NCBI GenBank assembly: GCA_964608615.1
Contig: CAZSQG010000005.1
Coordinates: forward strand, 23,651 to 87,650
From: an uncultured Marinilabiliaceae bacterium
GTDB taxonomy: Bacteria; Bacteroidota; Bacteroidia; Bacteroidales; Marinilabiliaceae
DNA length: 64,000 nucleotides
Direction: 5' to 3'
Every line of letters starts with the position of its first letter. The stretch's first letter is position 1. Below the pieces are notes generated by a model. The model made no database searches. It was not told where the DNA came from and saw nothing but the letters and a program-made list of their open reading frames with translations. Positions 33,331 through 61,460 of the stretch are shown here, piece by piece. The position numbers were made by a program, and so were the translations under genes.

Positions 33331-33370
33331 AGAAAAGAGTGCAGCTTAATAAGATAACTGTCGACTATTT

Positions 33371-33896: not shown

Positions 33897-35606
33897 ATGA
33901 AATTCAATTTTAACATTGCTCAAAAGCTGATTTATGGCTTCGGTTTAATTCTGATAGTTGTTTTCTTAAACAGTATATTGACCCTATATACCCTTAATAA
34001 AAGTACAAACCGGAACAATCAGGTTACTGAAGTATTCAGCCCAACTGTAAAATCCCTCGATGATTTAGACATGCTAATTACCCAAAGCAAGATGTTAATA
34101 CGTAATTGGGTTTTTATAGATAAGCAGCCTGGAACACCTGATAAACTAAAACTTATTGAACTTCACGATAAAGAATTTAGTTCTTTAAAAAACACCTTAA
34201 ATGTTCTATCGGAACAATGGAAAAATGATGACGACAAGCAGGAACTTAAAAGCATCATAACCCAAACTGATTCTCTTTTTGAAATGCACAAATACATTAT
34301 AAAAAGTTTAAACTCTTTTGATGCTTATGAAGATGCATTCATAATGTTTGAAGTTGAAGACATGGTAATGGAAGGAGGAAAAATCATTACCTTAACCGAT
34401 AATATTGCAACCGAGATAATGGCTCTTACTACAAAATATAACACCAGTAACGATATTGCTCTGGCAGATATGAAAAGTGCCTTTGCTAATTTAACCTGGG
34501 TAGTTATAATCATGGGAATTATACTGCTTGTGGCCTCCCTTGCAATTGGATGGCTCCTTTATTCCTCCATTGTTAATCCACTTATTAAGGGCGTTTCATT
34601 TACTAAAGCTATTGGTGCTGGAGATCTCACTGCCAAGGTTGAAATAAATCAAAATGATGAAATTGGAATATTGGCCAAAGAACTTAGCAATATGGCCGAG
34701 AATCTTAAGAAGACAGTATTTACCATAAAAGATAATGCTTCAAACCTTGTTTCCTCAAGCGGAACTTTAAAAACCAGCTCTCTTCAGTTATCAAGAGGTT
34801 CAGCTGATCAGGCTGCATCTGCCGAAGAGGTATCAACATCTATTGAAGAAATGGTGGCCAATATTGACCAAAACACTGATAATGCTATTCAAACTGAAAA
34901 AATTACCGTTGAAACAGCAAAAGATGTTAATATTGCAAACGAATTAAGCTCCGAAGCAGCTATGGCTATGAGTGCCATTTCGGAGAAAATATCTATTATT
35001 AGTGACATAGCATTTCAAACCAATATTCTGGCGCTAAATGCTGCTGTTGAAGCAGCCAGAGCAGGAGAGCACGGACGTGGATTCTCTGTTGTAGCCGCTG
35101 AAGTGCGAAAATTGGCCGAACGAAGTAAATCAGCTGCAGATGAAATTGTAACATTAGTGAAAAAAGGTCTTAAAGTTTCTCAGGAAGCAGGAAACAAGGC
35201 AAGACTTCTGGTTCCGGACATTGAAAAAACCACTGTTCTTGTTAAAGAGATTGCTGCGGCCAGTATGGAACAAAAAACCGGCGCTGACCAAATAAACCTG
35301 GCCATGCAACAATTAAATATGATTACACAAGAAAACGCTTCAAGTTCAGATCAATTAACACAAAGTTCTGACGAGTTGCTTAAATTAGCTGAAAACCTTC
35401 AAGAAGCTGTTAGCTATTTCAGCATTGGCAAAGAAGATTTTGTTAGCAAGAAACAATCTCAAGGAAACGAAAAATCAGTAAGCCAACAAAATGAAACCGA
35501 AATAGCAAAAACGTCTAAAAAAACAAACTCAACAAAAAACAGTCCAATTCATAACCTTTCCAATCTTGAAAAGGAATTTGACATGGATAATTATGAAAAG
35601 TTTTAA
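33897..35606 (+). CDS. Methyl-accepting chemotaxis protein (2 TM, periplasmic sensor, HAMP, MCP signalling domain)
   Basis: The conserved hairpin tip is [37 protein letters not shown]. The TM helices are at [14 protein letters not shown] and [21 protein letters not shown], followed by a HAMP domain. The likely start is the ATG at 33897 ([10 protein letters not shown]), whereas the ORF track begins at 33801. Confidence 0.95.
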
Positions 35607-35639
35607 TTTTTTATCGAAACTTCTCAAAAAGAAATATGT

Positions 35640-35948
35640 ATGACTGAGAACTTTATTATAGACTTCAAAGAGAATAAAAATCAACTAGATATGGTTTTTA
35701 GTGGTCAATTAACCATAAATTCCATTGCTAAAATAACAGAAGAGGTTAAATTGCATCTTAAAAACCCTTCTGTTGTGAATATTAAAGTTAAAGACGTTGA
35801 TAATATTGACTTGACTTTTATTCAATTATTACACGCAATCAGTAACAGTGGAAAGAAAAAAGCGTTCGATGTAAATATCTCATTATCTGTTTCGGACGAA
35901 ATTTCTTCTTTGCTCACAAATGCAGGATTTGTAGATTATTTAAAATGA
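35640..35948 (+). CDS. STAS-domain protein (anti-sigma-antagonist-like)
   Basis: 102 aa showing the STAS pattern: FSGQLTINS...VNIKVKDVDNIDLTFIQLL...SDEISSLLTNAGFVDYL. Confidence 0.75.
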   Translation: MTENFIIDFKENKNQLDMVFSGQLTINSIAKITEEVKLHLKNPSVVNIKVKDVDNIDLTFIQLLHAISNSGKKKAFDVNISLSVSDEISSLLTNAGFVDYLK

Positions 35949-35972
35949 TAAAATCTTAAACCCGTTTATATT

Positions 35973-36338
35973 ATGGCTAAAACCGTTTTAATTGTTGATG
36001 ACTCCGAAAGTATCCGGGAAGTCGTAAATTTTACCCTTCAAAACGAAGGATATGATGTTTTGGTGGGAGTTGATGGAGATGATGCACTTAAGTTTCTTGA
36101 TGGTCGTCATATTGACATAATTATTACCGACCTTCACATGCCAAACCTTGATGGACTAGGCCTTATTCGAAAAGTAAGAGAGATGGATGATTACAAACAC
36201 ATACCCATCCTTTTCCTTACCACCGAATCGCAGGCTGCTAAAAAAATGGAAGCCAAGGAAGCCGGAGCAACAGGCTGGATTATAAAACCATTTGTTCCAG
36301 CTAAATTGCTTTCTGCAATTTCCAGAGTAATAAGGTAA
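35973..36338 (+). CDS. cheY: CheY-like single-domain response regulator
   Basis: LIVDDS, DIIITDLHMPNLDG (phospho-Asp), LTT and the IIKPF Lys are all present. Confidence 0.9.
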   Translation: MAKTVLIVDDSESIREVVNFTLQNEGYDVLVGVDGDDALKFLDGRHIDIIITDLHMPNLDGLGLIRKVREMDDYKHIPILFLTTESQAAKKMEAKEAGATGWIIKPFVPAKLLSAISRVIR

Positions 36339-36345
36339 CAAAAGT

Positions 36346-36678
36346 ATGATCGAAAAAATAAAGGAACAGTTCCATTTAGAAACCTTAAATGAATTGCAAA
36401 TTATAAGCACCAATTTATCTGCTGAGATAATCTCTCCTGAAGATATGTCCTTGCTTATAAATAGAATATTTTCAATAACCCACCAAATTAGTGGTACCGG
36501 ACCAATGCTTGGTTTTGACTACACTTCTAAGTTGTCTCGGAAAATTGAGAAAACATTCTATGAAATCAGATCAGGTGAAAAAGCCCTTAACATGCAGATT
36601 GTTTTGCAAACTCGTCGTACAATTGATACAATGATAAAATCAATTAACGATGAGTTCAACAGCAAAAGAATCATATAA
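36346..36678 (+). CDS. Stand-alone Hpt (histidine phosphotransfer) domain protein
   Basis: 110 aa. RIFSITHQISGTGPMLGF parallels the CheA P1 motif RIFRAMHSLKGGGAMFGF of the next gene. Confidence 0.7.
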   Translation: MIEKIKEQFHLETLNELQIISTNLSAEIISPEDMSLLINRIFSITHQISGTGPMLGFDYTSKLSRKIEKTFYEIRSGEKALNMQIVLQTRRTIDTMIKSINDEFNSKRII

Positions 36679-36722
36679 CAATAAAAATAGTTTTTTAATT
36701 ATGCTTAAATGCTTTGTGTCTC

Positions 36723-38768
36723 ATGATAGATAAGTTTAGAGCGAAGTTTGTTGAAGAGTCCACCGATAACATTCACGACATGGAAGAGGCATTGCTTCTT
36801 CTTGAAAAGGACATGAGAAATAAAGAGCTTATTGAGCGCATATTCAGAGCTATGCACTCTCTTAAGGGAGGCGGAGCCATGTTTGGTTTTAACCACTTAA
36901 GTGAGTTTACACACCACCTTGAAACTATTTTTGACTATGTGAGGAATGGTAAAACGGAAGTGTCCACAGACCTTATTACTCTTACTTTTTCAGCTATTGA
37001 CCAAATCAATTTTCTTCTTAAAACAGGAGATCTTACCAAGGAAGAGGACCTGAATGAACAAAAAATATTTATTAAAAAACTACAGGATTTCATCTCTGGA
37101 TCCGAATCACCTGTACAAGTAGCAGGAACAAAAGAAGAGTCATTTTCGGAAACCACAACTCCCGACAAACCTGAAAAAAGTTACCTGATTACTTTTATCC
37201 CTCACGAAGATCTTTTAAAAAACGGTACCAACCCTTTTTATTTACTGGACGATTTACATGCAATGGGCAAAACCAGACTCCTTGCCTTTAAAAACAAAAT
37301 TCCTTCTCTCGATTTATTAGATTTAACAACTAATTACTGCTATTGGCAGGTGATTCTCAGTTCAGTTGAATCAATTAACGAAATCCGAGATGTTTTTATT
37401 TTTGTGGAAGATGAATGTGAATTACATATTGATCTGATTTCTGAAATATCCATTATTGACAAACCAGAAGCTATTTCTCTGGCTGAAACTGCTTTGCAAA
37501 CCAAAACATTACTTTCGGTTGACGATTTTAAACATAGCGACTGGGCGCGACCTTTAGAGATAAAGGATGATGATGATAAGAAAAAGGCGTTATTAAAAGA
37601 ACATAAAATATCAAGCATCAGAGTTTCATCACATAAAATTGATGAGTTGGTTACTCTGGTAAGTGAAATGGTTACCATACAAGCTCAACTATCCTTATAT
37701 GCCGAAAACAGTGGTGATCCGGCAATTGTAGCCCTTACCGAAACCATTCAAAAACTTACTCGTCAATTACGCGATAATGCTTTTGATGTGAGCCTTATTC
37801 CTCTTCAGAATGAATTAATGCGGTTCCAAAGATTAGTCCGCGACTTATCAAAAGAACAAAAGAAAGATGTTGATTTTATAATTGAAGGAGGCGATCTGGA
37901 ACTTGATAAGAATATCATAGAACACCTCACCGACCCTCTTTTACACATCCTGCGTAATTCAATTGACCATGGAATTGAACTACCACAAGAAAGAATTGCT
38001 GCAGGGAAATCGCCAAAAGGCACTATCATTTTTAAAGCGTTTCATTCAGGGGCTAATGTGATTGTTGAAATTTCCGATGATGGCAAAGGCATTGATCCTG
38101 AATTCATAAAACAAAAAGCCATTAGTAAGGGACTTATTGATGCGGATGCCATTCTTGATAAGAAAGATACTTTTGACTTGCTTTTTATTAGTGGTTTTTC
38201 AACCCGCGACACAGTTTCCGGAGTTTCCGGACGCGGTGTGGGAATGGATGTAGTAAGAAGGAAAATTGCAAACATTAGAGGAGAAGTTTCCTTGGAATCA
38301 GGAAAAGGAAAAGGGACAATTATTTCCATTCGCCTGCCACTAACCTTATCAATAATTGATGGTTTATTGGTGACGGTTGGTGATAATCAATATGTAATAC
38401 CAATTTCGGCTATCGAAAAAATATTTGCTTTTGAACAATCATTGTTAAAAAATACATTTAACAATGTTGTGGTCATTGATAATGAACAGATACCTTATGT
38501 TAGTCTGCGTGAAATCTTTAATATGCCAAAGTTTGAAGAAAATAAATTTGAGATGGTAATGATTCGGGCTGAAGACAGAAAGCTTGGAGTAATTGTTGAC
38601 TCGGTGGTTGGCGAATATCAAACCGTAGTTAAGCCCATGGGCCGATACATGGAGAAACAAGAGATAATATCAGGAGCTTCTATCATGGGTGATGGAACAA
38701 TTTCAATGGTAATTGATACTTCCAGACTTTTTCAGTCGAGAAAAACAAGGAAAGTCCTGGTAGAATAA
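36723..38768 (+). CDS. cheA: Chemotaxis histidine kinase CheA (P1-P5, no receiver domain)
   Basis: The P1 Hpt domain has HSLKGGGAMFGF. Kinase motifs are the N-box HILRNSIDHGIE, G1 DDGKGID and G2 GRGVGMDVV. A C-terminal CheW-like P5 is present. The ORF-track start at 36714 is TTG. The ATG at 36723 (MIDKFRAKF) is likelier. Confidence 0.95.
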   Translation: MIDKFRAKFVEESTDNIHDMEEALLLLEKDMRNKELIERIFRAMHSLKGGGAMFGFNHLSEFTHHLETIFDYVRNGKTEVSTDLITLTFSAIDQINFLLKTGDLTKEEDLNEQKIFIKKLQDFISGSESPVQVAGTKEESFSETTTPDKPEKSYLITFIPHEDLLKNGTNPFYLLDDLHAMGKTRLLAFKNKIPSLDLLDLTTNYCYWQVILSSVESINEIRDVFIFVEDECELHIDLISEISIIDKPEAISLAETALQTKTLLSVDDFKHSDWARPLEIKDDDDKKKALLKEHKISSIRVSSHKIDELVTLVSEMVTIQAQLSLYAENSGDPAIVALTETIQKLTRQLRDNAFDVSLIPLQNELMRFQRLVRDLSKEQKKDVDFIIEGGDLELDKNIIEHLTDPLLHILRNSIDHGIELPQERIAAGKSPKGTIIFKAFHSGANVIVEISDDGKGIDPEFIKQKAISKGLIDADAILDKKDTFDLLFISGFSTRDTVSGVSGRGVGMDVVRRKIANIRGEVSLESGKGKGTIISIRLPLTLSIIDGLLVTVGDNQYVIPISAIEKIFAFEQSLLKNTFNNVVVIDNEQIPYVSLREIFNMPKFEENKFEMVMIRAEDRKLGVIVDSVVGEYQTVVKPMGRYMEKQEIISGASIMGDGTISMVIDTSRLFQSRKTRKVLVE

Positions 38769-38799
38769 TATAATTCAACGCTTAAATGTTTAAGCACTT

Positions 38800-39249
38800 A
38801 TGGAAAATGTGAATAAAACTATACTATCATTCCAGATAAATGAGAATGTCTTTGCAGTAGATGCTCTTCAAGTTGCGCATATACTTGAAATTCCTTCCAT
38901 TATCACAAAAGTTCCAAACACACCAGATCATCTAGTAGGTGTAATAAACCTTCATGGTAATATTATTCCTGTAGTGGACATGAGAATTATTATGGCCGAA
39001 GAGATTGGCGAGTCAAATGCCGACAACGCTATTATTGTCATTAATCCAGCCGAAATTCAGGATTCCAGATTTGGTATTATGGTAGATTTGGTTAAAGAAG
39101 TCTTGGAGATTAACTCAAATGATTTAAAAGAGACCATCTTAGAAGGAAGAAAAGGTATGATTGAAAACTTTGAAGGCACACTATTACAAAATGATACTTT
39201 TATTCATATCATCGACATTAACCATTTGGCTGAAATAATTGAAAAATAA
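38800..39249 (+). CDS. cheW: CheW coupling protein
   Basis: 149 aa with the CheW-like domain pattern (FQINENVFAVDALQV..I......KVPNTPDHLVGVINLHGNIIPVVD). Confidence 0.9.
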   Translation: MENVNKTILSFQINENVFAVDALQVAHILEIPSIITKVPNTPDHLVGVINLHGNIIPVVDMRIIMAEEIGESNADNAIIVINPAEIQDSRFGIMVDLVKEVLEINSNDLKETILEGRKGMIENFEGTLLQNDTFIHIIDINHLAEIIEK

Positions 39250-39267
39250 AAGGATAACAAAAAAAAT

Positions 39268-39756
39268 ATGGCCTCGATATTGAATTCATACCTTACATTC
39301 CTGATTGGAGAAGAGGTTTTTGGTGTTAATGTGACAAAAGTAATGGAAATCACAGAATATCAGACTCCAAAGCCACTTCCGCAAACCCTGCCATTTGTTT
39401 CAGGGGTAATACAATTCCGCGATGAAATCATCCCCTTAATAGATACAGGGATTAAATTTGGCATGTCACCTGTTGCCATTTTACCGGGTACATGTATTAT
39501 TATCCTTCAACTAATAAGCGACACTCTCGGTAAAACTTACCGTGTTGGCGTTTTAGTTGATGCTGTATCTGATGTGTTGGAATGTGATAATATTGATATG
39601 AAAAGTATTGAGGACGATTATAAACCTAATTACATCCTTACCACCTATCCTGTTGAAGATAAACTTATTTTTATTCTGAATGCCGATGTTGTTTTCAGCC
39701 AGAAAGAAATTATTAAAATGATTGAAATGATTAATAAACAAAAAAAAGAATCTTAA
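39268..39756 (+). CDS. cheW: CheW coupling protein (second copy)
   Basis: 162 aa with a CheW-like domain (FLIGEEVFGVNVTKV.EI......LPQTLPFVSGVIQFRDEIIPLID). Confidence 0.9.
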   Translation: MASILNSYLTFLIGEEVFGVNVTKVMEITEYQTPKPLPQTLPFVSGVIQFRDEIIPLIDTGIKFGMSPVAILPGTCIIILQLISDTLGKTYRVGVLVDAVSDVLECDNIDMKSIEDDYKPNYILTTYPVEDKLIFILNADVVFSQKEIIKMIEMINKQKKES

Positions 39757-39759
39757 TCA

Positions 39760-40629
39760 ATGGAGAAATCCGTTCATAATTCTGGGGGCCTGGACTGCTT
39801 TAAAGCTGAACTTTCGGAAAAAGACTTCCAGGTTTTCAGTCAATTTATTTATTCCGAATATGGAATAAAAATGCCACCTATTAAAAGAATTATGCTTCAG
39901 GGCAGACTCCTGAAAAGAATTAGAGAATTACAAATGTCATCGTATTCTGAATATAAAGATTACTTTTTTAGTAAAGAAGGACAAGATAAAGAGTTACTTC
40001 AATTTTTAAATGTTGTAACAACTAATAAAACTGATTTTTTTAGAGAACCTGTTCATTTTAATTTTATGAACGATGTAGTTCTTACGGCCTTTAAAAACAA
40101 CGGTATTAACGGTCAGCCTATAAAAATCTGGAGTGCTGGATGTTCAAGTGGAGAGGAACCTTACACCATATCGATCATTCTCAATGAGTATGAAAGATTA
40201 AATCCCTTGTTTAAATTTGATATTCTTGGTTCAGATATCTCCACACAAATGCTTGAAAAAGCAGCAAAAGGAGTTTATCAGGCAAACAAGCTGGTTACAG
40301 TTCCCATGGAACTAAAGAAAAGATATTTTTTGAAAAGCAAAGACCCCAACATTCACAACGTTAGGGTTCATCCTATTTTACAAAAAAACATCAGATTAAC
40401 CTATCTTAACCTGATGGATAATAGTTATTCAATTAAAGAGACATTTGATGTAATATTTTGTCGTAATGTTCTTATATATTTTGACCGTCCAACACAGGAA
40501 AAAGTTATAAATAAGCTCTGTTTACAGCTTAAACCCGGAGGATATTTTTTTATAGGACACTCCGAGTCCCTTTCAGGAATGGACGTTCCCTTAGAACATG
40601 TAAAACCGACAATATTCAAAAAAAAATAA
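39760..40629 (+). CDS. cheR: Chemotaxis protein methyltransferase CheR
   Basis: TDFFREPVHF, the SAM motif IWSAGCSSGEEPYT and DVIFCRNVLIYFD are all present. Confidence 0.95.
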   Translation: MEKSVHNSGGLDCFKAELSEKDFQVFSQFIYSEYGIKMPPIKRIMLQGRLLKRIRELQMSSYSEYKDYFFSKEGQDKELLQFLNVVTTNKTDFFREPVHFNFMNDVVLTAFKNNGINGQPIKIWSAGCSSGEEPYTISIILNEYERLNPLFKFDILGSDISTQMLEKAAKGVYQANKLVTVPMELKKRYFLKSKDPNIHNVRVHPILQKNIRLTYLNLMDNSYSIKETFDVIFCRNVLIYFDRPTQEKVINKLCLQLKPGGYFFIGHSESLSGMDVPLEHVKPTIFKKK

Positions 40630-40659
40630 GTATAACCACCAAGACGAAATAACAACATT

Positions 40660-41559
40660 ATGATGAACATTTCTGACAAACAGCTTTTAAAAGAGTTAAA
40701 AATCAAACTCGAGGAGCGGAAGAAATTTGAGGATGAAGTAAACCTACTTTCACAAGAACTTCAGGAAGTTACTCAACGCTTTAAGGAATCTGAAGCATTA
40801 AAAAGTCATTTTATTTCAAACATTTCCAATGAAATAGTAAACCCGTTTACATCTATACTAGGCCTTTCCAAATCAATTCTTGCCGTTGAAAAAAACGACT
40901 GGAAAAAAGTTGTAAGTATGGTAGCACTTATTCATAGTGAGGCCTTCAATCTCGATTTTCAGCTAAAGAACATCTTTGTTGCCGCCAAAATTGAAGCTGG
41001 AGAAGTTGTTCCCAATGTTGCCAAGGTTAATGTCAGAAACATAATCCAAACCATGATCGAATCATTTAGTCTGGTGGCTCGTAAAATGGCTATTGAAATT
41101 GATTTCAAGTTTAACATTGAATATGGTTTTGGGAAAAATTTCTATTTTAAAACCGACAGTGAAAAATTAAAGCTTATTCTGAGCAATCTCATGAATAACG
41201 CATTAAAATATAGTTATAAGGACAGCAAAGTAATTATAACAGTTTGGGTTGATGAAGATATTCTCAACTTCTCAGTACAGGATTTTGGTACAGGCATTTC
41301 TGAAAAAAATCAAAAAGTTATTTTCGAACGCTTCAAGCGACTCGATTCAGGCATTAATTCAATAAACCGCGGCCATGGGCTTGGACTCTCCATTACTAAA
41401 GCATTGCTAGATGTAATGGGAGGTTCTATTGAAATTGAAAGCAAAAAGGGTGAAGGCTCTACCTTTTATGCTAGGATACCTGAAGCCAAAAACATAATTG
41501 AAGGGTTTAGTGGAGAAGGTAATGAAACATTCTTCGATGAAGATGACGAGATTTTTTAA
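40660..41559 (+). CDS. Cytoplasmic histidine-kinase-like protein with degenerate H-box (HisKA + intact HATPase_c)
   Basis: A coiled-coil N-terminus is followed by the H-box region KSHFISNISNEIVNPFTSILG, which aligns to the consensus FlanmSHELRTPL with Asn (codon aat, 40828..40830) at the His position. The N-box LSNLMNNALKYS, G1 QDFGTGIS and G2 GHGLGLSI are intact. Confidence 0.8.
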   Translation: MMNISDKQLLKELKIKLEERKKFEDEVNLLSQELQEVTQRFKESEALKSHFISNISNEIVNPFTSILGLSKSILAVEKNDWKKVVSMVALIHSEAFNLDFQLKNIFVAAKIEAGEVVPNVAKVNVRNIIQTMIESFSLVARKMAIEIDFKFNIEYGFGKNFYFKTDSEKLKLILSNLMNNALKYSYKDSKVIITVWVDEDILNFSVQDFGTGISEKNQKVIFERFKRLDSGINSINRGHGLGLSITKALLDVMGGSIEIESKKGEGSTFYARIPEAKNIIEGFSGEGNETFFDEDDEIF

Positions 41560-41568
41560 GGAATTATA

Positions 41569-42039
41569 ATGGATCAATATTTACAACATTTTTTGTATCC
41601 TTCAACACTGTTTGCCAGTAAAGACCCTTATATGGTTAAAACCATACTGGGTTCGTGCGTAGCAATATGCCTCTACGATCCGGTTCAGAAGGTGGGTGGA
41701 ATAAACCACTATATGTTATCTAACTGGAACGGAAAAGATTTGGCTTCGCCCAAATATGGTAATATAGCCATAGAAAAACTGATTGAACGAATGTTGCATT
41801 ATGGATGTAAAAAAGAAAATCTACAAGCAAAAATTTTCGGTGGTGGCGATTTGATTGCTGCCGGCCGGAGTGCAATGCTAATAGGTGAGCGCAATATAAG
41901 GGTCGCCCGATTAATATTAGAAGAGAAAAACATTCCAATTATTGCCTCCAGTACAGGCGGTAGAAAAGGACGGAAAATTTTGTTCTTTACTGATACAGGC
42001 GAGGTAAGGCATAAATTTCTTGAGAAAAAAGAGTATTAA
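41569..42039 (+). CDS. cheD: Chemoreceptor glutamine deamidase CheD
   Basis: The LGSCVAICLYD catalytic Cys motif, GINHYMLS and KIFGGG are present. Confidence 0.9.
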   Translation: MDQYLQHFLYPSTLFASKDPYMVKTILGSCVAICLYDPVQKVGGINHYMLSNWNGKDLASPKYGNIAIEKLIERMLHYGCKKENLQAKIFGGGDLIAAGRSAMLIGERNIRVARLILEEKNIPIIASSTGGRKGRKILFFTDTGEVRHKFLEKKEY

Positions 42040-42060
42040 TCTTGTGGCAAGTTTATAGTA

Positions 42061-43143: not shown

Positions 43144-43286
43144 CCCTTTTTATTATGAATCGTATAATAGTATCATTGAAGTTTAAATATTAAAAGCCAA
43201 CACTAAATAATTTGATTAATAATTAGTTATGTAGAATTATTAAGTTGGTAAAAAAAGACCAATCAGCCTAACAAAAAAATTGTGGC

Positions 43287-45164: not shown

Positions 45165-45179
45165 TATAAACCCTTAAGA

Positions 45180-46025: not shown

Positions 46026-46033
46026 GAAAAACC

Positions 46034-48199: not shown

Positions 48200-48208
48200 A
48201 AAAACTAA

Positions 48209-50827
48209 ATGTCGTTTAAACCTGAAAATATAAGTATAAAAGATTTGAGAAGAGCTATCTCCCTTAAGGAGATCTCGTATTCAAAGAAGTTTATTCTATA
48301 TACTTCTTTCATACTTCTTTTTATTCTTTCTTGGTCAGGCTTTTTAGCTCTGGAAAAAACCAATTTTTCACTACTGAGTATTATAGCTCTTCACAAAAAT
48401 GCTCTGGTTTGGTTTACCGACTTTCTTATTTTTGGAGTTGCTTTTTCGGGTATTGTTTACTTTAACCTTTTAAAATCCAAAACCGAAAAACTAAAAAACA
48501 AAGTTTATGAACTTAACGAAAGAATACAGGTTAACATTGAACTTGCAAATAATCTTAAATATGCAAATTGGGAAAAACTCCAAGCCAATGGAGACATCTT
48601 ATCCCAAACATTATTAGAACTTGGACTTAACATTAGAGACAGTAAAAAAAGAGAAGAAGAACAAAACTGGATTACAAACGGGAAAGATCTGATTTCAGAT
48701 TTGCTTAGAAATTCTCATAACCTGGAGGATCTATCCGTTTCAGTTATTAAAGCTCTAATCAACTATATGGGTGGCATACAAGGTGCTTTTTACCTAAATC
48801 AAGGGAGCGTACTTAAAAGAAGTGCTATGTATGCCTATGGGCGTCGACGCTTTGAATACAATGAAATACCAATTGGTAAGGGCCTTATTGGTGCCTCCGC
48901 TTATGAAAAAGCCATAATTTTTCGGTCCGAAATTCCCGAAGATTACTTTATTGTAACCTCAGGTCTTATAGGAGAGCAAAAACCTAAAAGCATATTACTG
49001 ATTCCTTTACTTCAGGAAGAGGATTTACAAGGTGTTTTGGAAATAGCCTTTCTGGAAACTCGTCTTCCAAAATATAAAAACATTTTTGCCGAGGAGGTAG
49101 GTTCAATAATTGGACAAACAATTTACAACCTAAAAATTACCACCCGTACCGAAATGTTGCTTAAGGAATCGCAGGAAATGACCACCATTCTTAGGGAAAA
49201 CGAAGAAAAACTGCGCCAAAACGCAAGAGAAATGATTGTTGGTCAGGAAGAACTCGAACGTAGCAACCAGATGCTTGAATCACAAATACAGGAGGTTGCA
49301 AACTCCCAAAAGAAACTTGAAGCATTGCTTACCAACGCCTCTGAATTCATCTCAATTTATGACGAAAACCAAATCCTTGTTTTTGAAAGTCCTTCAGTTA
49401 AGAGAATTCTGGGTTATTCTGATTCAGACATCATAAATGGCATGGATCCCGAAATATTAACTCCCAGAGGTTTAAAAACAATAAATCGATTATTCCAATT
49501 CCTACTTGATACCCCAGGAGGTGAACAAATTGCACAATACACTTATTTAAGGAAAAATGGGGAGAAGCTTTTTCTGGAGACTAAAGGAAAAAACTTACTT
49601 CACGATCAGGCAATCAGAGGTATAATTTTTAATACTCAGGATATAACCGAACGAAAACGTGCCGAAAAAGAGGAACGTATGAAAAGCCGGATGCAAAGCT
49701 TATCGGAAAATTCTCCTGATATGATCATCCGAATTAACTTATTGGGAAAGCTTGTTTATGTAAACCCTGCTGTTTCAAGATTCATTGACATTCCAGCGTC
49801 TGAACTTGTTAAGAAACGAATACCCGATTTAATGATCGATCCTCGTTTTATTGAATTCATGCAGGAAACATTAGCTTCCGTACGAGATCAACAACAACAA
49901 ATTATTTCGGAGGTTGCTGTAAGCTCAAATGATGGCGAACGAATTATGGAGATTAAAGTAATCCCTGAATTAGGTGAAGAGGGCGAACTTGAAACCATAC
50001 TGTTCGTAGCTCATGATATGACTGATTTCAAAAAAATAGAACAGGAAATAAAGGAAAAAAATAAAAAGATTTCAGACAGTATTAACTATGCACAAAGGAT
50101 TCAAACATCCATTTTACCCAATACTGGGTTACTACAAGAATACTTTCCACGTTCATTTATCTTTTATCGTCCCAAAGATATAGTAAGTGGTGATTTCCCG
50201 TGGTTTTTCAGAAAAGATAATATATACTATGTTGCTGCAGTTGACTGCACAGGCCATGGTGTTCCGGGGGCTTTAATCAGTTTTATCGGACATTTCCTTT
50301 TAAACAACATTGTAAGCGTTGATAATAACTCAACTGCTGCCCAGATTATGGATAATCTCCATCTTGAGGTTAGAAGTACTTTAAAACAAGATCAGGAAGG
50401 AGCTACAGGGCGCGACGGAATGGATCTTGCATTATGCAAGATCGATCCCGATAATAAAATTCTTGAATTTGCCGGAGCTCATCGTCCTTTATATTATCTT
50501 CGAAAGGGAGAATTAACAGAATATCAAGGTACACGAAAAGGAATTGGAGGAATACCATTAGCAAAAAAAACTGAAAAAGATTTTGAAAATCATGTTATCC
50601 ACTATCAAAGTGGTGATCAAATATTTATTTTTAGTGATGGATTACCTGATCAGCTGGGAGGACCGGAACGTAAAAAATACCAGTCACGTCGTATTCGTGA
50701 AGCATTAACTGAAAAACAGAATGTTTCAATGGCTCATTTTTCGCGCCATTTTTCAATGGATTTTTACGACTGGCTGGGAGAAGAAAAACAAGTTGACGAT
50801 GTCCTTTTGATAGGAATTGAATTGTAA
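48209..50827 (+). CDS. Membrane GAF + 2x PAS + PP2C (SpoIIE/RsbU/SiaA-type) protein phosphatase
   Basis: TM helices precede a GAF domain (GIQGAFYL...GKGLIGA...VTSGLIGEQKPKSILLIPL...QGVLEIAFL). A coiled coil and two PAS domains follow. The C-terminal PP2C motifs are SGDFPWF, AVDCTGHGVPGA and FSDGLPDQ. Confidence 0.9.
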   Translation: MSFKPENISIKDLRRAISLKEISYSKKFILYTSFILLFILSWSGFLALEKTNFSLLSIIALHKNALVWFTDFLIFGVAFSGIVYFNLLKSKTEKLKNKVYELNERIQVNIELANNLKYANWEKLQANGDILSQTLLELGLNIRDSKKREEEQNWITNGKDLISDLLRNSHNLEDLSVSVIKALINYMGGIQGAFYLNQGSVLKRSAMYAYGRRRFEYNEIPIGKGLIGASAYEKAIIFRSEIPEDYFIVTSGLIGEQKPKSILLIPLLQEEDLQGVLEIAFLETRLPKYKNIFAEEVGSIIGQTIYNLKITTRTEMLLKESQEMTTILRENEEKLRQNAREMIVGQEELERSNQMLESQIQEVANSQKKLEALLTNASEFISIYDENQILVFESPSVKRILGYSDSDIINGMDPEILTPRGLKTINRLFQFLLDTPGGEQIAQYTYLRKNGEKLFLETKGKNLLHDQAIRGIIFNTQDITERKRAEKEERMKSRMQSLSENSPDMIIRINLLGKLVYVNPAVSRFIDIPASELVKKRIPDLMIDPRFIEFMQETLASVRDQQQQIISEVAVSSNDGERIMEIKVIPELGEEGELETILFVAHDMTDFKKIEQEIKEKNKKISDSINYAQRIQTSILPNTGLLQEYFPRSFIFYRPKDIVSGDFPWFFRKDNIYYVAAVDCTGHGVPGALISFIGHFLLNNIVSVDNNSTAAQIMDNLHLEVRSTLKQDQEGATGRDGMDLALCKIDPDNKILEFAGAHRPLYYLRKGELTEYQGTRKGIGGIPLAKKTEKDFENHVIHYQSGDQIFIFSDGLPDQLGGPERKKYQSRRIREALTEKQNVSMAHFSRHFSMDFYDWLGEEKQVDDVLLIGIEL

Positions 50828-50867
50828 CTATATTTACATAATTTTGGACAATTTTGAAATAAACACG

Positions 50868-51434
50868 ATGGAAAAGGAAAACCAAGGGTTTCTGGAGTTT
50901 GCTTATCAGCTCTATAAAACAATGAAAACCAATGAAATTAATTTGGTTTACGAAGGCGAGGTCACACAGGAAATAACCAAAACCTTTACCACTCTTACCG
51001 AAAAGAGTCTTTCGAAAAATGCCGAATCAAATACCGTTCAAAAAAAAGTATTCAATGTAATGGTTGAGTGTTTACAAAACATTAGTAAACACGCTGATTC
51101 TTTGAATGATGAAGATGAAGAACGTAGGGGAATTGTAATGGTTAGCAAGGGCGAGGATAGCTATAACATCATTACCGGCAACGTTATTAAAAACGAAAAA
51201 GTTCCAGAATTGAAAAAGAGCCTGGAGCTTATTAACAGTCTGGACAAAGAAGGCCTTTCCACATTGTTTAAACAACAAATTAGGGAAACAACCATTTCAG
51301 ATAAAGGTGGTGCCGGACTTGGACTAATTGACATTGCAAAAAAAACCGGGAGCAAGCTATCCTATCAGTTCAAAGAGCTAAACCAGAGTGTCTCTTTTTT
51401 CATTTTGACTTCTACCATTAAAAGAAACGGATAA
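50868..51434 (+). CDS. SiaB-like GHKL-type protein kinase (partner-switch kinase)
   Basis: About 188 aa from the ATG at 50868 (MEKENQGF), whereas the ORF-track start is upstream. An anti-sigma-kinase-like fold is suggested by ECLQNISKH and the ATP-lid GGAGLGLIDIAKKTG. It sits between a PP2C gene and a DUF1987 gene, as siaB does. Confidence 0.7.
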   Translation: MEKENQGFLEFAYQLYKTMKTNEINLVYEGEVTQEITKTFTTLTEKSLSKNAESNTVQKKVFNVMVECLQNISKHADSLNDEDEERRGIVMVSKGEDSYNIITGNVIKNEKVPELKKSLELINSLDKEGLSTLFKQQIRETTISDKGGAGLGLIDIAKKTGSKLSYQFKELNQSVSFFILTSTIKRNG

Positions 51435-51445
51435 AATAAGCAACC

Positions 51446-51826
51446 ATGAACATCATAAATATTAAAGGTACAGATGATACCCCAAACGTTATCCTTGATA
51501 AGGATAAGCAATTATTCGAAATATCAGGAAGGTCTCTTCCCGAAGATGTAAATATGTTTTATGAACAAATTCTGGATTGGATTGATAGTTACTCCGAAGA
51601 TCCAAATGATAGGACAGAGTTCAATTTTAAACTGGAATATTTTAATACCGCCTCCTCAAAAGTTATTCTCGATATTCTTCTTAAATTTGAAGAAATATTG
51701 GAAAAAGGAAAAGATGTGGTAATTAAATGGCATTACCATGAAGACGAAGAAGACATGCTCGAAGCAGGTGAAGAATATGCCGACATTGTTGAAATTCCTT
51801 TCGATTACGTGGTATACAACGACTAG
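51446..51826 (+). CDS. SiaC-like DUF1987 protein (phospho-Thr switch protein)
   Basis: 126 aa showing the DUF1987 pattern: G..DTP.V.LD......EISGRS.PED...FY..IL.W...Y, followed by LEYFNTASSK. The Thr of the FNT motif is residue 68 (codon acc, 51647..51649). Confidence 0.75.
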   Translation: MNIINIKGTDDTPNVILDKDKQLFEISGRSLPEDVNMFYEQILDWIDSYSEDPNDRTEFNFKLEYFNTASSKVILDILLKFEEILEKGKDVVIKWHYHEDEEDMLEAGEEYADIVEIPFDYVVYND

Positions 51827-51851
51827 ACCTGACAGACTTTTCCTTTAAAAA

Positions 51852-54800
51852 ATGAGTGAAGAAATTCTAAAAGCATTAATGCAGTTGTTTGGTTTACTAA
51901 CCAAACAAGATGGAGGTGTTGGATCCAACGAGACAGAATATGTGCGTACGTTTCTTAAGCAACAACTAAATAAAGAAGCTGTTGAAGAATATTTTTCGCT
52001 CTTTTTAACTTACACAACCGAAGAAAATAAAACCAAACCGGGCGATGAAGAAGGTAAGATTCAACTTACCTCCATGAAAGACTCAGTTAGAATTCTGGGT
52101 ATATGCAAAAAAATAAATAAACAGCTTAACAGGGAACAAAAAGTTGTTGTGTTAGTGCGATTATATGAGCTTGTCAGCATGGATATGAAGCTGACCGATC
52201 AACGCATGGCCATCATCAACACTGTTGCCGATGTTTTCAAATTACCTAAGAACGAGATATCTGCAATTGAGGCATTTGTTCTTCAAAATGATATCACAAA
52301 ATTGAACTTCCCTGACATACTGATAGCCAATGACACGGAGATTCAGGATGTACAGTTTAAACATATTAATACAACCGGTCTTCATGGATCAGTTCTGGTT
52401 TTAAATGTAAAAAGTGCCGAACTGTATTTTATGCGTTACAACGGCGACCAGGATGTTTTTTTGAATGGCTTGGTTATCAGTAATAAAAGAATTTATCTGT
52501 TTCCTAATGGGAGCTTTATTAGAATACCTATTGGAAAACCAATATATTATACTGATGTTGTTAGTCGGTTTATGGCCGATTCTGATTCACCAAAAATCAC
52601 TTACGAAGTTAAAAACGTTCATTTTCGTTTTAAAAGTGGAGCAGTAGGTCTGCGCAACATCAATATAGCAGAAGAACAAGGCCGCCTCATTGGAATAATG
52701 GGTGCCTCAGGTGCAGGAAAAACCACCTTGCTCAACGTTCTCTCTGGCATTGAAAAACCAACTGAAGGAGAAGTTCTTATCAATAACTATAATCTCCATG
52801 CCGATAAAGAAGATCTCAACGGAGTTATTGGTTTAATTCCACAAGATGACTTGCTTATTGAAGAACTCACCGTTTTTGAAAATCTTTATTATAACGCAAA
52901 ACTCTGTTTCAGAGATAAAGGGGAAGAAGAATTAATCGGCATGGTTAATGAAACCCTTCAAAATCTTGGCCTTTTTGAAAGACGACATTTAAAAGTTGGA
53001 TCACCTCTTAACAAGATGATTAGTGGAGGCCAGCGTAAAAGATTAAACATAGCACTGGAATTAATTCGTCAGCCATCAGTTTTATTTGTTGATGAGCCAA
53101 CCTCCGGTCTTTCTTCACGCGATTCTGAAAACGTGATGAACCTGCTTAGAGAACTAACACTAAAGGGAAAACTGATCTTTGTGGTTATCCACCAACCATC
53201 TTCCGACATCTATAAGATGTTTGATAAAATGTTTATCCTTGATACTGGCGGCTATCCTGTTTATTATGGAAATCCGGGTGAATCGCTTATTTACTTTAAA
53301 CAACTTGACGCACAAATAAATAGCGATCAGGGTGAATGCCCAACTTGTGGTAATCTGAACCCCGAACAAATATTCAATATCATTGATGCCAATGTTATTG
53401 ATGAATATGGAAATTATACAAACAAAAGAAAAGTAGAAGCAGAAGATTGGTATAAACTCTTTGAAAAAACGCATTCGCTACCCTCTGTTAAAACCGTTGA
53501 AACCTCTCCCCCAAAGAGTTTGAACATCCCATCATGGTTCAATCAGTTTAAAATTTACACCTTACGCGATTTTTTCGCCAAAATTAGTAACACCCAATAT
53601 ATTGCCCTTAACTTATTAGAAGCACCATTTTTGGGTTTTATTCTTGCCTATTTGATCCGTTATATTGCTGATCCAACATCGAATTTTTACATTTTCAGAG
53701 AAAACGAAAACATACCACCTTACATATTTATGGGCATAGTGGTGGCTCTGTTCTTTGGTTTAATAATTAGTGCCGAAGAAATATTTAAAGATTCCAAAAT
53801 ACTGAAAAGAGAGTCATTTCTAAATCTTAGCCGTTCAAGCTATCTGAGTTCCAAGATTCTCCTGCTTTTCACTATTTCAGCCATTCAAATGTTCCTTTTT
53901 GTTTTCGTAGCAAATACAATTCTTGGTATTAAGGACATGTATTTTGAATTCTGGCTCGCATTATTCTCCATTTCAGCTTTTGCCAATATTCTCGGATTAA
54001 TATTATCAGCATCATTTAACAGTATTGTTACCATATATATTCTTATTCCATTGGTAATGATTCCTCAAATGGTATTGGGTGGAGCTATGTTTACATTCGA
54101 TAAACTAAACAAGGACTTTACCAGTGTCGACAAAGTGCCAGCAGTTGCTGAATTCATGCCTTCGCGATACATTTATGAAGGATTGATTGTACATCAGTAC
54201 AAGCACAATAATTTCAAAAAGAATTACTTTGACATCGAGCTTCAGGAAAGTAAAAGCGACTTTAAACAAGTACATTACCTTCCAGAATTACACGATATTT
54301 TAAATGAGTGTTCTTTACATATAATTGATGGCAAACCCACATCAGACAAGACATTTGTCAACGATCTGGAATTAATAAGGAATGAGATTTCGAAAGAATT
54401 AATAAGAGTTCCCGAATTGCAATTTAGTTTAATTGATAAAATCACACCTGAAGAATTTAATTCAGATATTGCCCAAAATATTGACAACTACCTAAACAAC
54501 TTGCTTGTATATTACCGAGGTGTTTTTACTAAAGCAAATAGTTCAAAGGACCGCTTTATAAGTATCAACATCAACCAAGATGCCACACGTTTTAACCGCA
54601 TTAAAGATGAGTACTATAATGAAAGTATTTCATCAATTGTTCGCAAAGAATTTGAGAAAAATAAAATTCTGAGACAAGACAACCATTTAGTACAAATGGC
54701 TGACCCTATTTATCAGATTCCCGAACCTTCAGGTTTCTGGTCGTTTCGTACCCATTTCTTTGCTCCGGTTAAACATTTAGGTGGAAATTTCTTTGAAACA

Positions 54801-54920: not shown

Positions 54921-54979
54921 CCTTTTATTTTTCATAATAGTATAAGAGAGAACATTAGAAAACACTTAAACTTTTTGTC

Positions 54980-55897
54980 ATGTTAAAAAAACTATCTTAC
55001 CTATTGCTAATACTAGCCGCAACTCAGTTATTTAACGGCTGTTCGGGCTGCTCAGATAAAAAGTCTAAAGGCAGTGATTCACTTGCATTACCTGATTCGG
55101 TTATCAGCGATACACCATTAAAGCTTTCAGAAGACATTATGAATGAGGTTATTCAAAATATCTCATCGCCCGTTGAGATGGCTAATCTAATAAAATCTTC
55201 TGGTGCTGAATTTTCACAGCGAATCCTTAATAATACTGACAATGTTTCACGATATGAAACTTCATATAAAAGAGCTTTAAACCTAGGTGTATTTAGTGCC
55301 GATCTTGGATACATCAATATTTTCGATAAGAATAACGTTGTTGTTTCATACCTTTTGTCGGTAAAAAATCTTGCCGATGGTATTCGTGTTGGCCAATTCT
55401 TTGATTTCAATGCTCTGCGGCGTATGGCATCCAATTCAACTAACCTTGATTCTTTAATGGATATGTCAGTATCAAGTTTTAATAAGATGGATGCCTATTT
55501 ACGCGATCAAAACCGCAGTAATGTGAGTACTCTTATTGTTACCGGTACCTGGATTGAAGGTTTGTATATCGCTTCAAGCGTTGTAAAAGAAACCAAAAGT
55601 AAAGAATTATCTATTCGCATAGCCGAACAAAAAAATATTATTGATATACTTGAAATAATTCTCAGCAATTATATTAGTGAACCTAATTTTGCAACCCTGG
55701 TTGATGATATTCGTGAGCTTAAGAATGCTTATTCTGATATTAGGATTACAACAGAATTGGGAGAGCCAAAAAGAATTGAAAAAGATGGTATGCTTATTGT
55801 AATTCAGGATGAAATAAGCACAGTACATTATACCGATGAGCAGCTAGCTATGATTATGGATTTGATCGGAAAAATCCGCAATAAAATTGTTGAATAG
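54980..55897 (+). CDS. Lipoprotein of unknown function
   Basis: The lipobox is LFNGC. The remaining ~280 aa appear mostly helical. I recognise no motif. Confidence 0.6.
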   Translation: MLKKLSYLLLILAATQLFNGCSGCSDKKSKGSDSLALPDSVISDTPLKLSEDIMNEVIQNISSPVEMANLIKSSGAEFSQRILNNTDNVSRYETSYKRALNLGVFSADLGYINIFDKNNVVVSYLLSVKNLADGIRVGQFFDFNALRRMASNSTNLDSLMDMSVSSFNKMDAYLRDQNRSNVSTLIVTGTWIEGLYIASSVVKETKSKELSIRIAEQKNIIDILEIILSNYISEPNFATLVDDIRELKNAYSDIRITTELGEPKRIEKDGMLIVIQDEISTVHYTDEQLAMIMDLIGKIRNKIVE

Positions 55898-55951
55898 TTA
55901 TAATTGTTTTAACATCAAAACAATTACAAAAGGAAATATAAACCAATTACT

Positions 55952-56407
55952 ATGAAAAAAATATTGTTAGGCTTAATATTAGTTCTTTCAATAAATTCTT
56001 TCAGCGTTTCGGCACAATGTGATGAATCGCTTAAAAAACAGGCACTGAAAGAGATGGGAGAAAGCCAATACATCAGAGACTTTTCTATTGACCTGAGAAA
56101 AGCAAAAAAGGATTTAAAAACGGGATTTGTGAAGTTTTCTGTTATTCTTAACAGTCGTAATGCATATAAGTTTACCGTTGTTAATAACCCCTCAAACCAA
56201 GAAGAAGTAATAATGCAGCTTTATGATGGTGACAAATTAATGATGAGTAATTTTGAAGGGGGTAAAATGTACAAGGCTACAACATTTATTTGCCGTACTA
56301 CCAAAATATACCATCTCACATTTTCGTTCAAGGGCGGAGAAGAAGGTTGTGCTGAAGCTGTTATTTCTTTAGTAAAACAATATGCTTCGGGTGAAATGGG
56401 ATTTTAG
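55952..56407 (+). CDS. Small secreted protein of unknown function
   Basis: The signal peptide is MKKILLGLILVLSINSFSVSA. The protein is 151 aa with several Cys residues in the mature part. No family is recognised. Confidence 0.55.
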   Translation: MKKILLGLILVLSINSFSVSAQCDESLKKQALKEMGESQYIRDFSIDLRKAKKDLKTGFVKFSVILNSRNAYKFTVVNNPSNQEEVIMQLYDGDKLMMSNFEGGKMYKATTFICRTTKIYHLTFSFKGGEEGCAEAVISLVKQYASGEMGF

Positions 56408-61446: not shown

Positions 61447-61460
61447 TGCCTTATAATTGA

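Follow-up and report, generated by a model that had tools for sequence, protein, structure and literature searches.

A conserved Marinilabiliaceae gene array combining a chemosensory core, a SiaABC-type partner switch and a candidate FHA-like ABCG exporter

Introduction

The subject of this study is an array of co-directional genes located at 33897-56407 of a 64,000-nucleotide stretch of DNA (hereafter the window) from an uncultured bacterium of the family Marinilabiliaceae, phylum Bacteroidota (GenBank assembly GCA_964608615.1, contig CAZSQG010000005.1, positions 23,651 to 87,650). Three of its genes are near-certain homologs of Pseudomonas aeruginosa SiaA, SiaB, and SiaC, and they are followed by a gene encoding an ABCG-type transporter which is probably the target of the predicted switch. 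Upstream lies a complete chemosensory (Che) core, which we regard as a conserved but unproven second input. Taken together, the array may constitute a conserved signaling-plus-export supercluster of four linked modules, a composite model that we hold to be about as likely as not and that we prefer to each of the rival readings considered.

Members of the Marinilabiliaceae are gliding or non-motile and not flagellated, according to the family description and not to a whole-genome scan, and flagellar control by the array is therefore unlikely. What chemosensory systems control in bacteria devoid of flagella or pili, and what is controlled by ancestral F7-type clusters bearing partner switches, are open questions (PMC7184735). 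The array offers a compact and strongly conserved case in which a candidate output, the exporter, is encoded within the cluster itself, and because several cultured Marinilabiliaceae carry it, it should be genetically tractable.

Results

A SiaABC-type switch adjoins an ABCG transporter

Domains of the array proteins were assigned with Pfam and NCBIfam, and the calls agreed gene by gene with those of an initial annotation made from the DNA letters, save for the FHA domain discussed below. The PP2C phosphatase (g17; Table 1) found its best Protein Data Bank (PDB) match in the PP2C domain of P. aeruginosa SiaA (6K4E, E 2.7e-26), a match in which the metal-binding Asp motifs align; SiaA is also its best NCBIfam match over the PP2C domain, the whole-protein score (165) staying below the cutoff (700) because the sensor part differs. 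The kinase aligns with SiaB (6KKO_A, E 7e-16), including the catalytic Glu, and the best PDB matches of the DUF1987 protein are SiaC structures (6KKO, 6K4F, and 7E6G, E 6e-17), with alignment of the phospho-acceptor T68, which is invariant in 21 homologs. The SiaC-like protein is unusually conserved, with 63-92% identity across 80 species. Judged from these alignments, the three genes are near-certainly true SiaA, SiaB, and SiaC homologs that would form a SiaABC-type switch, in line with the SiaABC-like partner switch of the initial annotation. The diguanylate cyclase SiaD does not accompany them. Pfam assigned a GGDEF, EAL, sigma-factor, or DNA-binding domain to none of the 22 array proteins, in accordance with the earlier claim that no such output gene is present, and a scan of all frames of the window for the G[GS][DE]EF (GGDEF-type) motif, though not for EAL, was negative.

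The transporter encoded directly after SiaC comprises 1022 residues. Its best subfamily model is TIGR00955 (E 1e-71, under the cutoff of that model), and its Walker A, signature, and Walker B motifs are intact in the sequence. Residues ~745-980 (window 54084-54791), that is, ~235 residues between the fifth transmembrane (TM) segment and the final one (980-998), probably form a large extracytoplasmic loop, which could touch the lipoprotein and the small secreted protein encoded next to it. Neither this loop nor segment 131-270 yielded anything meaningful in Pfam at E ≤ 10.

The N-terminal part of the transporter was analyzed by structure prediction. In the AlphaFold model of residues 1-270 (predicted local distance difference test, pLDDT, 77), a TerB-like helical bundle is followed by a beta domain. 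Foldseek searches with this whole model returned TerB-like bundles only, and the FHA signal emerged only when the beta domain was modeled alone (mean pLDDT 68): all 50 best PDB matches were then FHA domains, including those of EmbR and Bdellovibrio DgcB (probability 0.72-1.0, with 44 of the 50 at ≥ 0.9; TM-score ~0.4-0.58; E 0.01-0.3). The FHA-like domain named in the initial annotation is thus invisible to Pfam at E ≤ 10 but returns, with moderate confidence, as a predicted FHA-like fold. A profile of the beta domain searched against PDB sequences gave no FHA domain and a single chance match, VasD. Mapped by eye on the FHA consensus, Ser188 and Asn205-Gly206 are invariant. The N-terminal module belongs to a family of 578 clusters (E ≤ 1e-10) and was found only at the N-terminus of ~1000-residue proteins, the full-length members having ~1000-1160 residues.

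The lipoprotein and the secreted protein that complete the array have no relatives in Pfam (E ≤ 10) or NCBIfam, and their profile matches among PDB sequences are at chance level. Gliding ABC transporters of the GldA/F/G type and Gld lipoproteins were ruled out, no Pfam Gld family having been matched.

To describe conservation, the window proteins were mapped onto 80 species-representative genome loci anchored on SiaC and extending 10 kb to each side; the counts below, other than that for SiaB and SiaC, refer to loci with room for the gene in question. SiaB and SiaC are present in 80/80 loci, PP2C lies upstream in 60 of 71, and the ABCG gene follows in 71 of 74, with a SiaC-ABCG spacing of 25-100 nt. 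The lipoprotein gene comes after ABCG in 66/69 loci and the secreted protein gene in 62/65. Based on the SiaC-SiaD structure, DUF1987 proteins have been proposed to be general modulators of an adjacent protein (PMC8457831), which in the present array would be the ABCG transporter. The adjacency and the predicted FHA-like fold make transport, offered earlier as a possible output, the best-supported one, and we consider it likely that the exporter is the target of the switch.

Conservation and rearrangement of the array

Of 60 loci with room, 36-37 keep all genes from CheD through the secreted protein colinear; among them are loci of Natronoflexus, Alkaliflexus, Geofilum, Anaerophaga, Thermophagus, Plebeiibacterium, Saccharicrinis, Labilibacter, and Breznakibacter, as well as rumen or horse-gut metagenome-assembled genomes (MAGs) whose SiaC identity is no higher than 67-68%. 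The possibility that the Che and Sia halves never co-occur elsewhere, raised together with the initial annotation, is thereby removed. For the first half of the array, the comparison was anchored on the His-less kinase-like protein. Alkaliflexus, Breznakibacter, and an uncultured relative represented by a 5.7-Mb contig share exactly the order from DUF4154 and the chemoreceptor to SiaC, and it is the same in Thermophagus except for the stand-alone Hpt gene, which is missing between CheY and CheA in Thermophagus xiamenensis (locus L094, 5914-5991) and is therefore dispensable for the array in that genus. In all, no fewer than ten Marinilabiliaceae genera keep the order of the array, as do some gut Bacteroidales MAGs, and this colinear recurrence in dozens of species genomes places the array far beyond chance. 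The rhodanese/HemN neighbors found downstream in the window are met again in no more than 6-7 of 46 loci with room; because the array is kept while its flanks change, the clustering appears to be held by selection and not by inertia. The gap between CheB1 and the following GAF sensor, which spans 143 nt in the window, ranges from 26 to 57 nt in three relatives and from 108 to 206 nt in two more, and its shrinkage in relatives argues for co-transcription of the two halves.

The array is not kept whole everywhere. In Carboxylicivirga, it is split between PP2C and SiaB, the two parts lying ~100 kb apart on one contig; the DUF4154-to-PP2C half ends beside a threonine dehydratase gene, and SiaB, SiaC, ABCG, the lipoprotein, and the secreted protein stay together. 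The PP2C-SiaB break occurs in 11 Carboxylicivirga-type loci in all. In other Bacteroidales, a 4HB_MCP-GAF-PAS-PAS sensor is followed by TM-GAF-PAS-PAS-PP2C, SiaB, SiaC, ABCG, the lipoprotein, and the secreted protein, and neither CheD nor CheB1 was found within the ≤10 kb of upstream DNA examined in those carrying the switch-exporter genes, with or without the orphan CheR/CheB genes. Given the Carboxylicivirga split and these loci, the switch-exporter unit is autonomous, and the CheA core is a Marinilabiliaceae-centered addition or retention. SiaB and SiaC occur without ABCG in three loci (L083, L064, and L068); in the first, a Chitinophagales MAG (1163-5587), the gene after SiaC encodes a 1474-residue PKD/CHU_C protein secreted by the type IX secretion system (T9SS).

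Two local variants of the exporter region were also observed. Carboxylicivirga linearis carries a stand-alone 124-residue TerB gene directly 5' of SiaB (L031:8683-9057), besides the TerB domain fused to ABCG. In a goat-abomasum Bacteroidales MAG, the lipoprotein and secreted-protein pair is tandemly duplicated 3' of ABCG (L081:12418-15233, 17374-18396), and an MCP-like gene follows the duplicated pair.

Array layout and boundaries

The open reading frame (ORF) listing of the window contains 22 consecutive plus-strand ORFs (Table 1), separated by gaps of 3-59 nt or overlapping by 4-14 nt, with the sole exception of 143 nt at 43144-43286; both the gene count and the spacing agree with the initial annotation. 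Folding of the 143-nt gap gave no significant structure. The receptor start at 33897 is backed by the N-termini of six orthologs, the mechanical ORF beginning at 33801, and the SiaB-like gene starts at 50868, its mechanical ORF beginning at 50817.

The hairpin that ends the array is a bidirectional intrinsic terminator and stands as annotated, but it is not the only strong hairpin, since a more stable, terminator-like one lies between the DUF4154 gene and the receptor gene. After the latter hairpin come ~490 nt of AT-rich non-coding DNA, an unusually long stretch for so compact a region. Scans with sigma-70 promoter and terminator consensus sequences gave counts near the shuffled expectation; the promoter consensus does not cover Bacteroidota promoters, and the terminator scan did not list the real terminal hairpin at 56424-56459.

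The extent of the array needs one addition. The 22 genes hold, but the gene for a YfiR/HmsC-like periplasmic protein (DUF4154) is found directly 5' of the receptor gene in 6/6 genera, at a distance of 16 nt in Breznakibacter and 566 nt in the window, and for this reason it is proposed as the 23rd member. Its product may pair with the periplasmic domain of the receptor, in which Pfam found nothing meaningful at E ≤ 10.

Table 1. Features of the array and of the surrounding window (window coordinates; strand. marks features assigned to neither strand)
Feature	Position	Strand	Evidence or remarks
PorZ-like T9SS beta-propeller protein	805-3273	+	Confirms type IX secretion background
MMPL/sterol-sensing-domain RND-type transporter, divergent from array	29826-32255	-	
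YfiR/HmsC-like periplasmic protein, DUF4154, signal peptide	32812-33330	+	PF13689 E 1.3e-28; NCBIfam TOL_0243 YfiR-like
Terminator-like strong hairpin, flanking A/T runs	33368-33407	.	Fold -27.5 kcal/mol, z = -8.7
Transmembrane chemoreceptor, HAMP + MCPsignal, 34H	33897-35606	+	Pfam; TM scan; Tsr alignment
Single-domain STAS protein	35640-35948	+	PF01740, 25.2 bits
CheY-type single receiver domain	35973-36338	+	PF00072 E 1.8e-27
Stand-alone Hpt	36346-36678	+	PF01627, 25.9 bits
CheA (Hpt, dimerization, HATPase, CheW-like domains)	36714-38768	+	Pfam; NCBIfam CheA models 368-416 bits
CheW 1	38800-39249	+	PF01584 E 2.4e-26
CheW 2	39268-39756	+	PF01584 E 4e-25
CheR1, complete N + C domains	39760-40629	+	PF01739 E 2.9e-61; PF03705
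His-less histidine-kinase-like protein (DHp-like helix + GHKL ATPase)	40660-41559	+	HATPase_c E 5.9e-26
CheD	41569-42039	+	PF03975 E 1.9e-28
CheB1, receiver + methylesterase	42061-43143	+	Pfam; NCBIfam CheB 435.6 bits, above cutoff
Membrane-anchored GAF-PAS-PAS sensor (g12), no output domain	43287-45164	+	Pfam; 2 TM segments
CheR2	45180-46025	+	PF01739 E 3.3e-40
CheR3, degenerate CheR paralog, C-domain only	46034-46858	+	PF01739 E 5e-21
CheB2, methylesterase domain only, no receiver	46845-47429	+	PF01339 E 1.2e-43
Membrane-anchored GAF protein (g16), no output domain	47426-48199	+	GAF_2 28.8 bits; 2 TM segments
SiaA-like PP2C (SpoIIE) phosphatase, TM-GAF-PAS-PAS sensor (g17)	48209-50827	+	SpoIIE E 3.4e-18
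SiaB-family GHKL Thr kinase	50868-51434	+	DUF6272 E 5.9e-43; NF038262 172.9 bits vs cutoff 85
SiaC-family phosphoprotein (DUF1987)	51446-51826	+	PF09345 E 1.9e-41, 141 bits
TerB/FHA-like/ABCG-type transporter (nucleotide-binding then transmembrane domain), 1022 aa	51852-54920	+	Pfam TerB + ABC_tran + ABC2_membrane
Lipoprotein, no family, lipobox ...NGC	54980-55897	+	Cys21 nearly invariant
Small secreted Cys-containing protein, signal peptide	55952-56407	+	Q22, C23, C133 invariant
Array-ending bidirectional intrinsic terminator	56424-56459	.	Fold -21.5 kcal/mol, z = -6.1

The chemosensory core

The core Che set is complete (methyl-accepting chemotaxis protein, MCP; CheA; CheW; CheY-type receiver; CheR and CheB), and all members score above the Pfam gathering thresholds. 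The MCP has two TM segments and a ~170-residue periplasmic domain. End-to-end NCBIfam matches to Tar, Tsr, and Aer2 first suggested a 36H receptor, a class ruled out by residue-level alignment with Escherichia coli Tsr, relative to which the protein has two deletions of 7 residues each, placed symmetrically about the hairpin tip, and is thus a 34H receptor. MCP-type methylation consensus sites occur at residues 306, 314, and 454, and the C-terminus reads ...DLDNYEKF in 6/6 orthologs (window 35580-35606); by its sequence, NYEKF is a predicted NWETF-like pentapeptide for tethering CheR or CheB. Three CheR and two CheB paralogs are encoded in the same cluster as this receptor.

The accessory proteins of the core are conserved to different degrees. 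The STAS protein is weakly conserved and keeps a D-x-T-[FC]-x-Q motif in 6/6 orthologs, and the His of the motif THQISGTGP in the stand-alone Hpt is conserved. The NCBIfam models matched by CheA do not separate Che classes. The His-less histidine-kinase-like protein reaches only 17.7 bits with HisKA (cutoff 26.9), its H-box reading S-N-E-I-V-N-P. Asn replaces the phospho-acceptor His in 121/121 homologs, the ATP-binding boxes are intact, and with 75-94% identity across the family this gene ranks among the most conserved of the array. These features mark its product as a conserved pseudo-histidine-kinase and speak against a gene in decay. The analogy of DivL-type pseudokinases and of the phosphatase motifs of HisKA proteins suggests that this product may read phosphorylated CheY (CheY~P), dephosphorylate it, or phosphorylate the STAS protein.

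Orphan CheR/CheB proteins and membrane GAF sensors

Between the core and the switch lie two membrane GAF proteins without output domains (g12 and g16) and the genes encoding CheR2, CheR3, and CheB2. Over TM-coil-GAF-S-helix, g12 and the sensor part of the PP2C protein share 32% identity (E 1e-37), and a GAF motif is common to g16 and the PP2C protein; the three are paralogs. Each of them has its two TM segments in a tight hairpin and lacks a periplasmic domain, and only one, g17, carries an enzymatic output.

In 51 orthologs, CheR2 keeps the AGCSxGxE and D-I-S motifs, and CheB2 the GGSAGS, HRLKH, and GAN.DGA motifs. CheR3 lacks the CheR_N domain in Pfam and any NCBIfam match. In the window, its S-adenosylmethionine-binding motifs read P-N-E-S-S-G-E-E and N-N-P-S, and in the 51 orthologs AGC has become P-x-x and the ribose-binding Asp is lost, which makes it a probable pseudo-methyltransferase. 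Its median identity (36%) is among the lowest in the array, only that of TM-GAF being lower (30%). CheR2, CheR3, CheB2, and TM-GAF also stand beside the PP2C-SiaB-SiaC-ABCG set, in rearranged orders, in distant loci (L075, L080, L078, and L087). The orphan CheR/CheB genes reported in the initial annotation are therefore present but belong with the switch-exporter set and not with the CheA core.

Comparison with known systems

Literature searches for Che systems of Marinilabiliaceae, for a link between SiaC/DUF6272 and an ABC transporter, and for a combination of Che proteins, PP2C, and a partner switch found no characterized equivalent of the array. Che clusters with partner switches, SiaABC systems, and FHA-ABCG transporters are each already known; what is new is their combination, the exporter in place of SiaD, and the occurrence in a lineage non-flagellated by family description.

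The view that the composition is without precedent does not hold. The ancestral stage 1 F7 cluster contains STAS, cheY, cheA, two cheW, receptor, cheR, cheD, cheB, receptor, STAS, and serine phosphatase genes, and its function "remains unclear" (Ortega et al., PMC7184735), and the che1 locus of Shewanella includes the CrsR/CrsA partner switch acting on RpoS (PMC9855816). Examples of ancestral stage 1/2 F7 systems are Vibrio cholerae cluster III, P. aeruginosa Che2, and S. oneidensis Che1 with CrsR/CrsA. As in stage 1 clusters, the array presents STAS, CheY, CheA, two CheW, CheR, CheD, and CheB in the same relative order, though with extra genes intercalated, and has a serine phosphatase and a STAS-type protein further downstream (here PP2C and the STAS-like SiaC), and the output of F7 systems is likewise non-flagellar, uncharacterized, or stress-related (PMC7184735, PMC9855816). 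In contrast to F7, with its cytoplasmic 36H Aer2 receptor between cheW and cheR, a transmembrane 34H receptor stands first in the cluster; the PP2C carries GAF-PAS sensors in place of a receiver domain, and the switch is of the SiaB/SiaC type. An Hpt, the His-less kinase, CheR2/CheR3, CheB2, and the GAF sensors are additional, an exporter follows, and the host, judging by its taxonomy, has no flagellar F6 partner system. An in-cluster 34H receptor with a C-terminal pentapeptide has been associated with F8 (PMC11253619), and the array resembles F8 clusters such as P. syringae cluster II in these features; F8 hosts are flagellated proteobacteria, and their F8 clusters are not reported to include a partner switch or an exporter. 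With an F7 stage 1-like gene order and a receptor of the kind linked to F8, the alternative cellular function label given to the array earlier is not supported by the features compared.

P. aeruginosa SiaABCD shares with the array the PP2C, the GHKL Thr kinase, and the DUF1987 phosphoprotein (T68), in the same order. It differs in that SiaC is followed there by the SiaD cyclase and here by the TerB/FHA-like/ABCG transporter, in that the phosphatase sensor is a periplasmic domain with HAMP in SiaA and TM-GAF-PAS-PAS here, and in that the module is here embedded in a Che cluster. The nearest characterized analog of the exporter is Rv1747 of Mycobacterium tuberculosis, an FHA-FHA-ABCG exporter regulated by PknF and activated by Thr phosphorylation (PMC3138270). 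Both are ABCG half-transporters with an N-terminal cytoplasmic FHA-fold region (predicted here) and an adjoining Ser/Thr kinase gene (PMC3138270, PMC8339232). However, the array protein has one degenerate FHA-like domain after a TerB-like bundle, whereas Rv1747 has a pair of canonical ones; by-eye mapping places no canonical pThr-binding Arg in the array protein; and a GHKL SiaB-type kinase would act here on SiaC, whereas a Hanks kinase acts there on the transporter itself.

In partner-switch control of envelope or polysaccharide machinery, V. fischeri SypE/SypA and Anabaena HenR-STAS likewise represent phospho-STAS-type switches acting on a non-sigma envelope target; they belong to other protein families, and neither is reported with a Che core or an ABCG target (PMC10120452, PMC13555669). 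With YfiBNR, the array shares only the YfiR fold of the DUF4154 protein, whose conserved neighbor is here an MCP, and the window holds no GGDEF-motif protein.

Discussion

In the composite model, four modules would work together. Module A is the complete chemosensory core, predicted to adapt (34H receptor with its pentapeptide, CheA, two CheW, CheY, CheR1, CheD, and CheB1), together with the STAS protein, the Hpt, the His-less kinase-like protein, and the YfiR-like protein in front; module B consists of CheR2, pseudo-CheR3, a presumably constitutive CheB2 without receiver, and the two output-less membrane GAF sensors; module C is the SiaABC-type partner switch, its PP2C carrying a paralogous GAF-PAS sensor; and module D is the TerB/FHA-like/ABCG exporter with the lipoprotein and the periplasmic protein. 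By homology with P. aeruginosa SiaABC, the membrane GAF/PAS sensors would set the balance between PP2C and the SiaB kinase, and this balance would in turn set phosphorylation of SiaC at Thr68. The invariant adjacency and the predicted fold suggest that SiaC, in one phospho-state, would dock on the TerB/FHA-like module of the transporter and toggle the export of what is probably an envelope component. Finally, as conserved clustering hints, the chemosensory core might feed an adapting receptor signal into the same switch, through CheY~P, the His-less kinase, or the STAS protein as candidate links. The last step is put forward tentatively, with our own estimate leaning somewhat toward doubt, and the complete chain, in which a chemoreceptor array with methylation adaptation steers no motor and gates an FHA-like ABCG exporter through SiaA/SiaB/SiaC in non-flagellated Bacteroidales, is possible but doubtful.

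Several observations weigh against the composite model. Neither a physical connection nor phosphotransfer was found to join module A to module C; the PP2C has no receiver domain, CheY and CheB1 being the only receivers in the array; and no MCP-type methylation consensus is present in g12, g16, or g17. The array is split in Carboxylicivirga, CheD and CheB1 are lacking from the ≤10 kb of upstream DNA examined at other Bacteroidales loci, and the 143-nt gap together with the upstream hairpin allows separate transcripts. For the exporter, ABCG is missing after SiaB-SiaC in three loci, the FHA assignment comes from a model whose mean pLDDT is 68 and whose Foldseek values are weak (E 0.01-0.3), Pfam detects no FHA in the protein at E ≤ 10, and in the by-eye mapping on the FHA consensus no conserved Arg stands where the canonical pThr-binding residue is expected. 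The earlier suggestion that a His-Asp phosphorelay is wired into the Ser/Thr switch consequently reaches beyond what was found, namely gene linkage, in view of the receiver-less PP2C, the Carboxylicivirga split, and the Bacteroidales loci without a Che core in the upstream DNA examined.

The main rival reading is of two independent systems lying side by side, in which the Che core would steer gliding or other motility through CheY, the GAF, PP2C, SiaB, SiaC, and ABCG genes would form a separate envelope-export regulon, and adjacency would mean co-expression at most. The core is indeed complete and adapting (CheR, CheB, CheD, methylation sites, and pentapeptide), a single-domain CheY is typical of motor control, and the switch-exporter module stands alone in other Bacteroidales; the Carboxylicivirga split and the interval between CheB1 and the GAF sensor point in the same direction. 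Nevertheless, both halves remain colinear across many genera while the flanks reshuffle, the interval narrows to 26-57 nt in relatives, and upon the split PP2C remains with the Che half and not with its own substrate. To our knowledge, moreover, the best-studied gliding Bacteroidetes need no Che genes. The STAS, Hpt, and His-less kinase genes inside the core mirror the ancestral F7 clusters linked to partner switches (PMC7184735). On balance, we consider two unconnected systems unlikely.

The switch could also act on something other than the exporter, for example an unlinked diguanylate cyclase like that of P. aeruginosa or a sigma/anti-sigma pair like that of Shewanella CrsR/CrsA, with ABCG, the lipoprotein, and the secreted protein as co-transcribed cargo. 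SiaC and STAS switches are known to act on cyclases and sigma factors (PMC8457831, PMC9855816), and both the three loci with SiaB-SiaC but no ABCG and the FHA-like domain without the canonical Arg would fit such a target. On the other hand, the window has no GGDEF-type motif and the array no GGDEF, EAL, or sigma-factor domain; ABCG keeps its close position behind SiaC in 71 of 74 species, and the Carboxylicivirga rearrangement left it in place; and the transporter has a dedicated N-terminal regulatory module that occurs only in this transporter family. A target other than the exporter seems quite unlikely, and the exporter is retained as the probable one. Least probable, in our opinion, is a second half acting as a methylation-adapting Che-like pathway of its own, in which CheR2, CheB2, and the pseudo-CheR3 adaptor methylate the GAF sensors, PP2C output adapts, and the CheA core is a later Marinilabiliaceae add-on: CheR2, CheR3, CheB2, and TM-GAF do accompany the switch-exporter genes in distant lineages, the CheR2 and CheB2 catalytic motifs are conserved, and the sensors are paralogs, yet these sensors lack the methylation consensus, a Che core could adjoin the distant loci beyond the upstream DNA examined, and we know of no established non-MCP substrate of CheR.

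If the composite model is true, the array would provide chemosensory control of the export of an envelope or surface component. SiaC proteins would gain their first non-cyclase target, extending the SiaABC paradigm beyond the control of cyclic di-GMP, and the exporter would be the second, independent case of an FHA-type ABCG transporter controlled by Thr phosphorylation. The array also holds four conserved oddities: the His-less kinase-like protein, the pseudo-CheR, the receiver-less CheB, and the YfiR-like protein paired with a chemoreceptor.

Genomic surroundings

Outside the array, the PorZ-like gene near the start of the window confirms the T9SS signature noted initially. The MMPL/RND-type transporter gene, which is divergent from the array, adjoins it in 5/6 genera examined, Thermophagus being the exception, and its product could possibly relate to the substrate of the exporter. 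No tRNA gene was found by a scan of the window. Positions 14000-20000 form a block of ~40-42% GC with glycosyltransferase genes, and the 3' end of the window (58000-64000) includes DNA of 26-32% GC whose GC skew is strongly positive.

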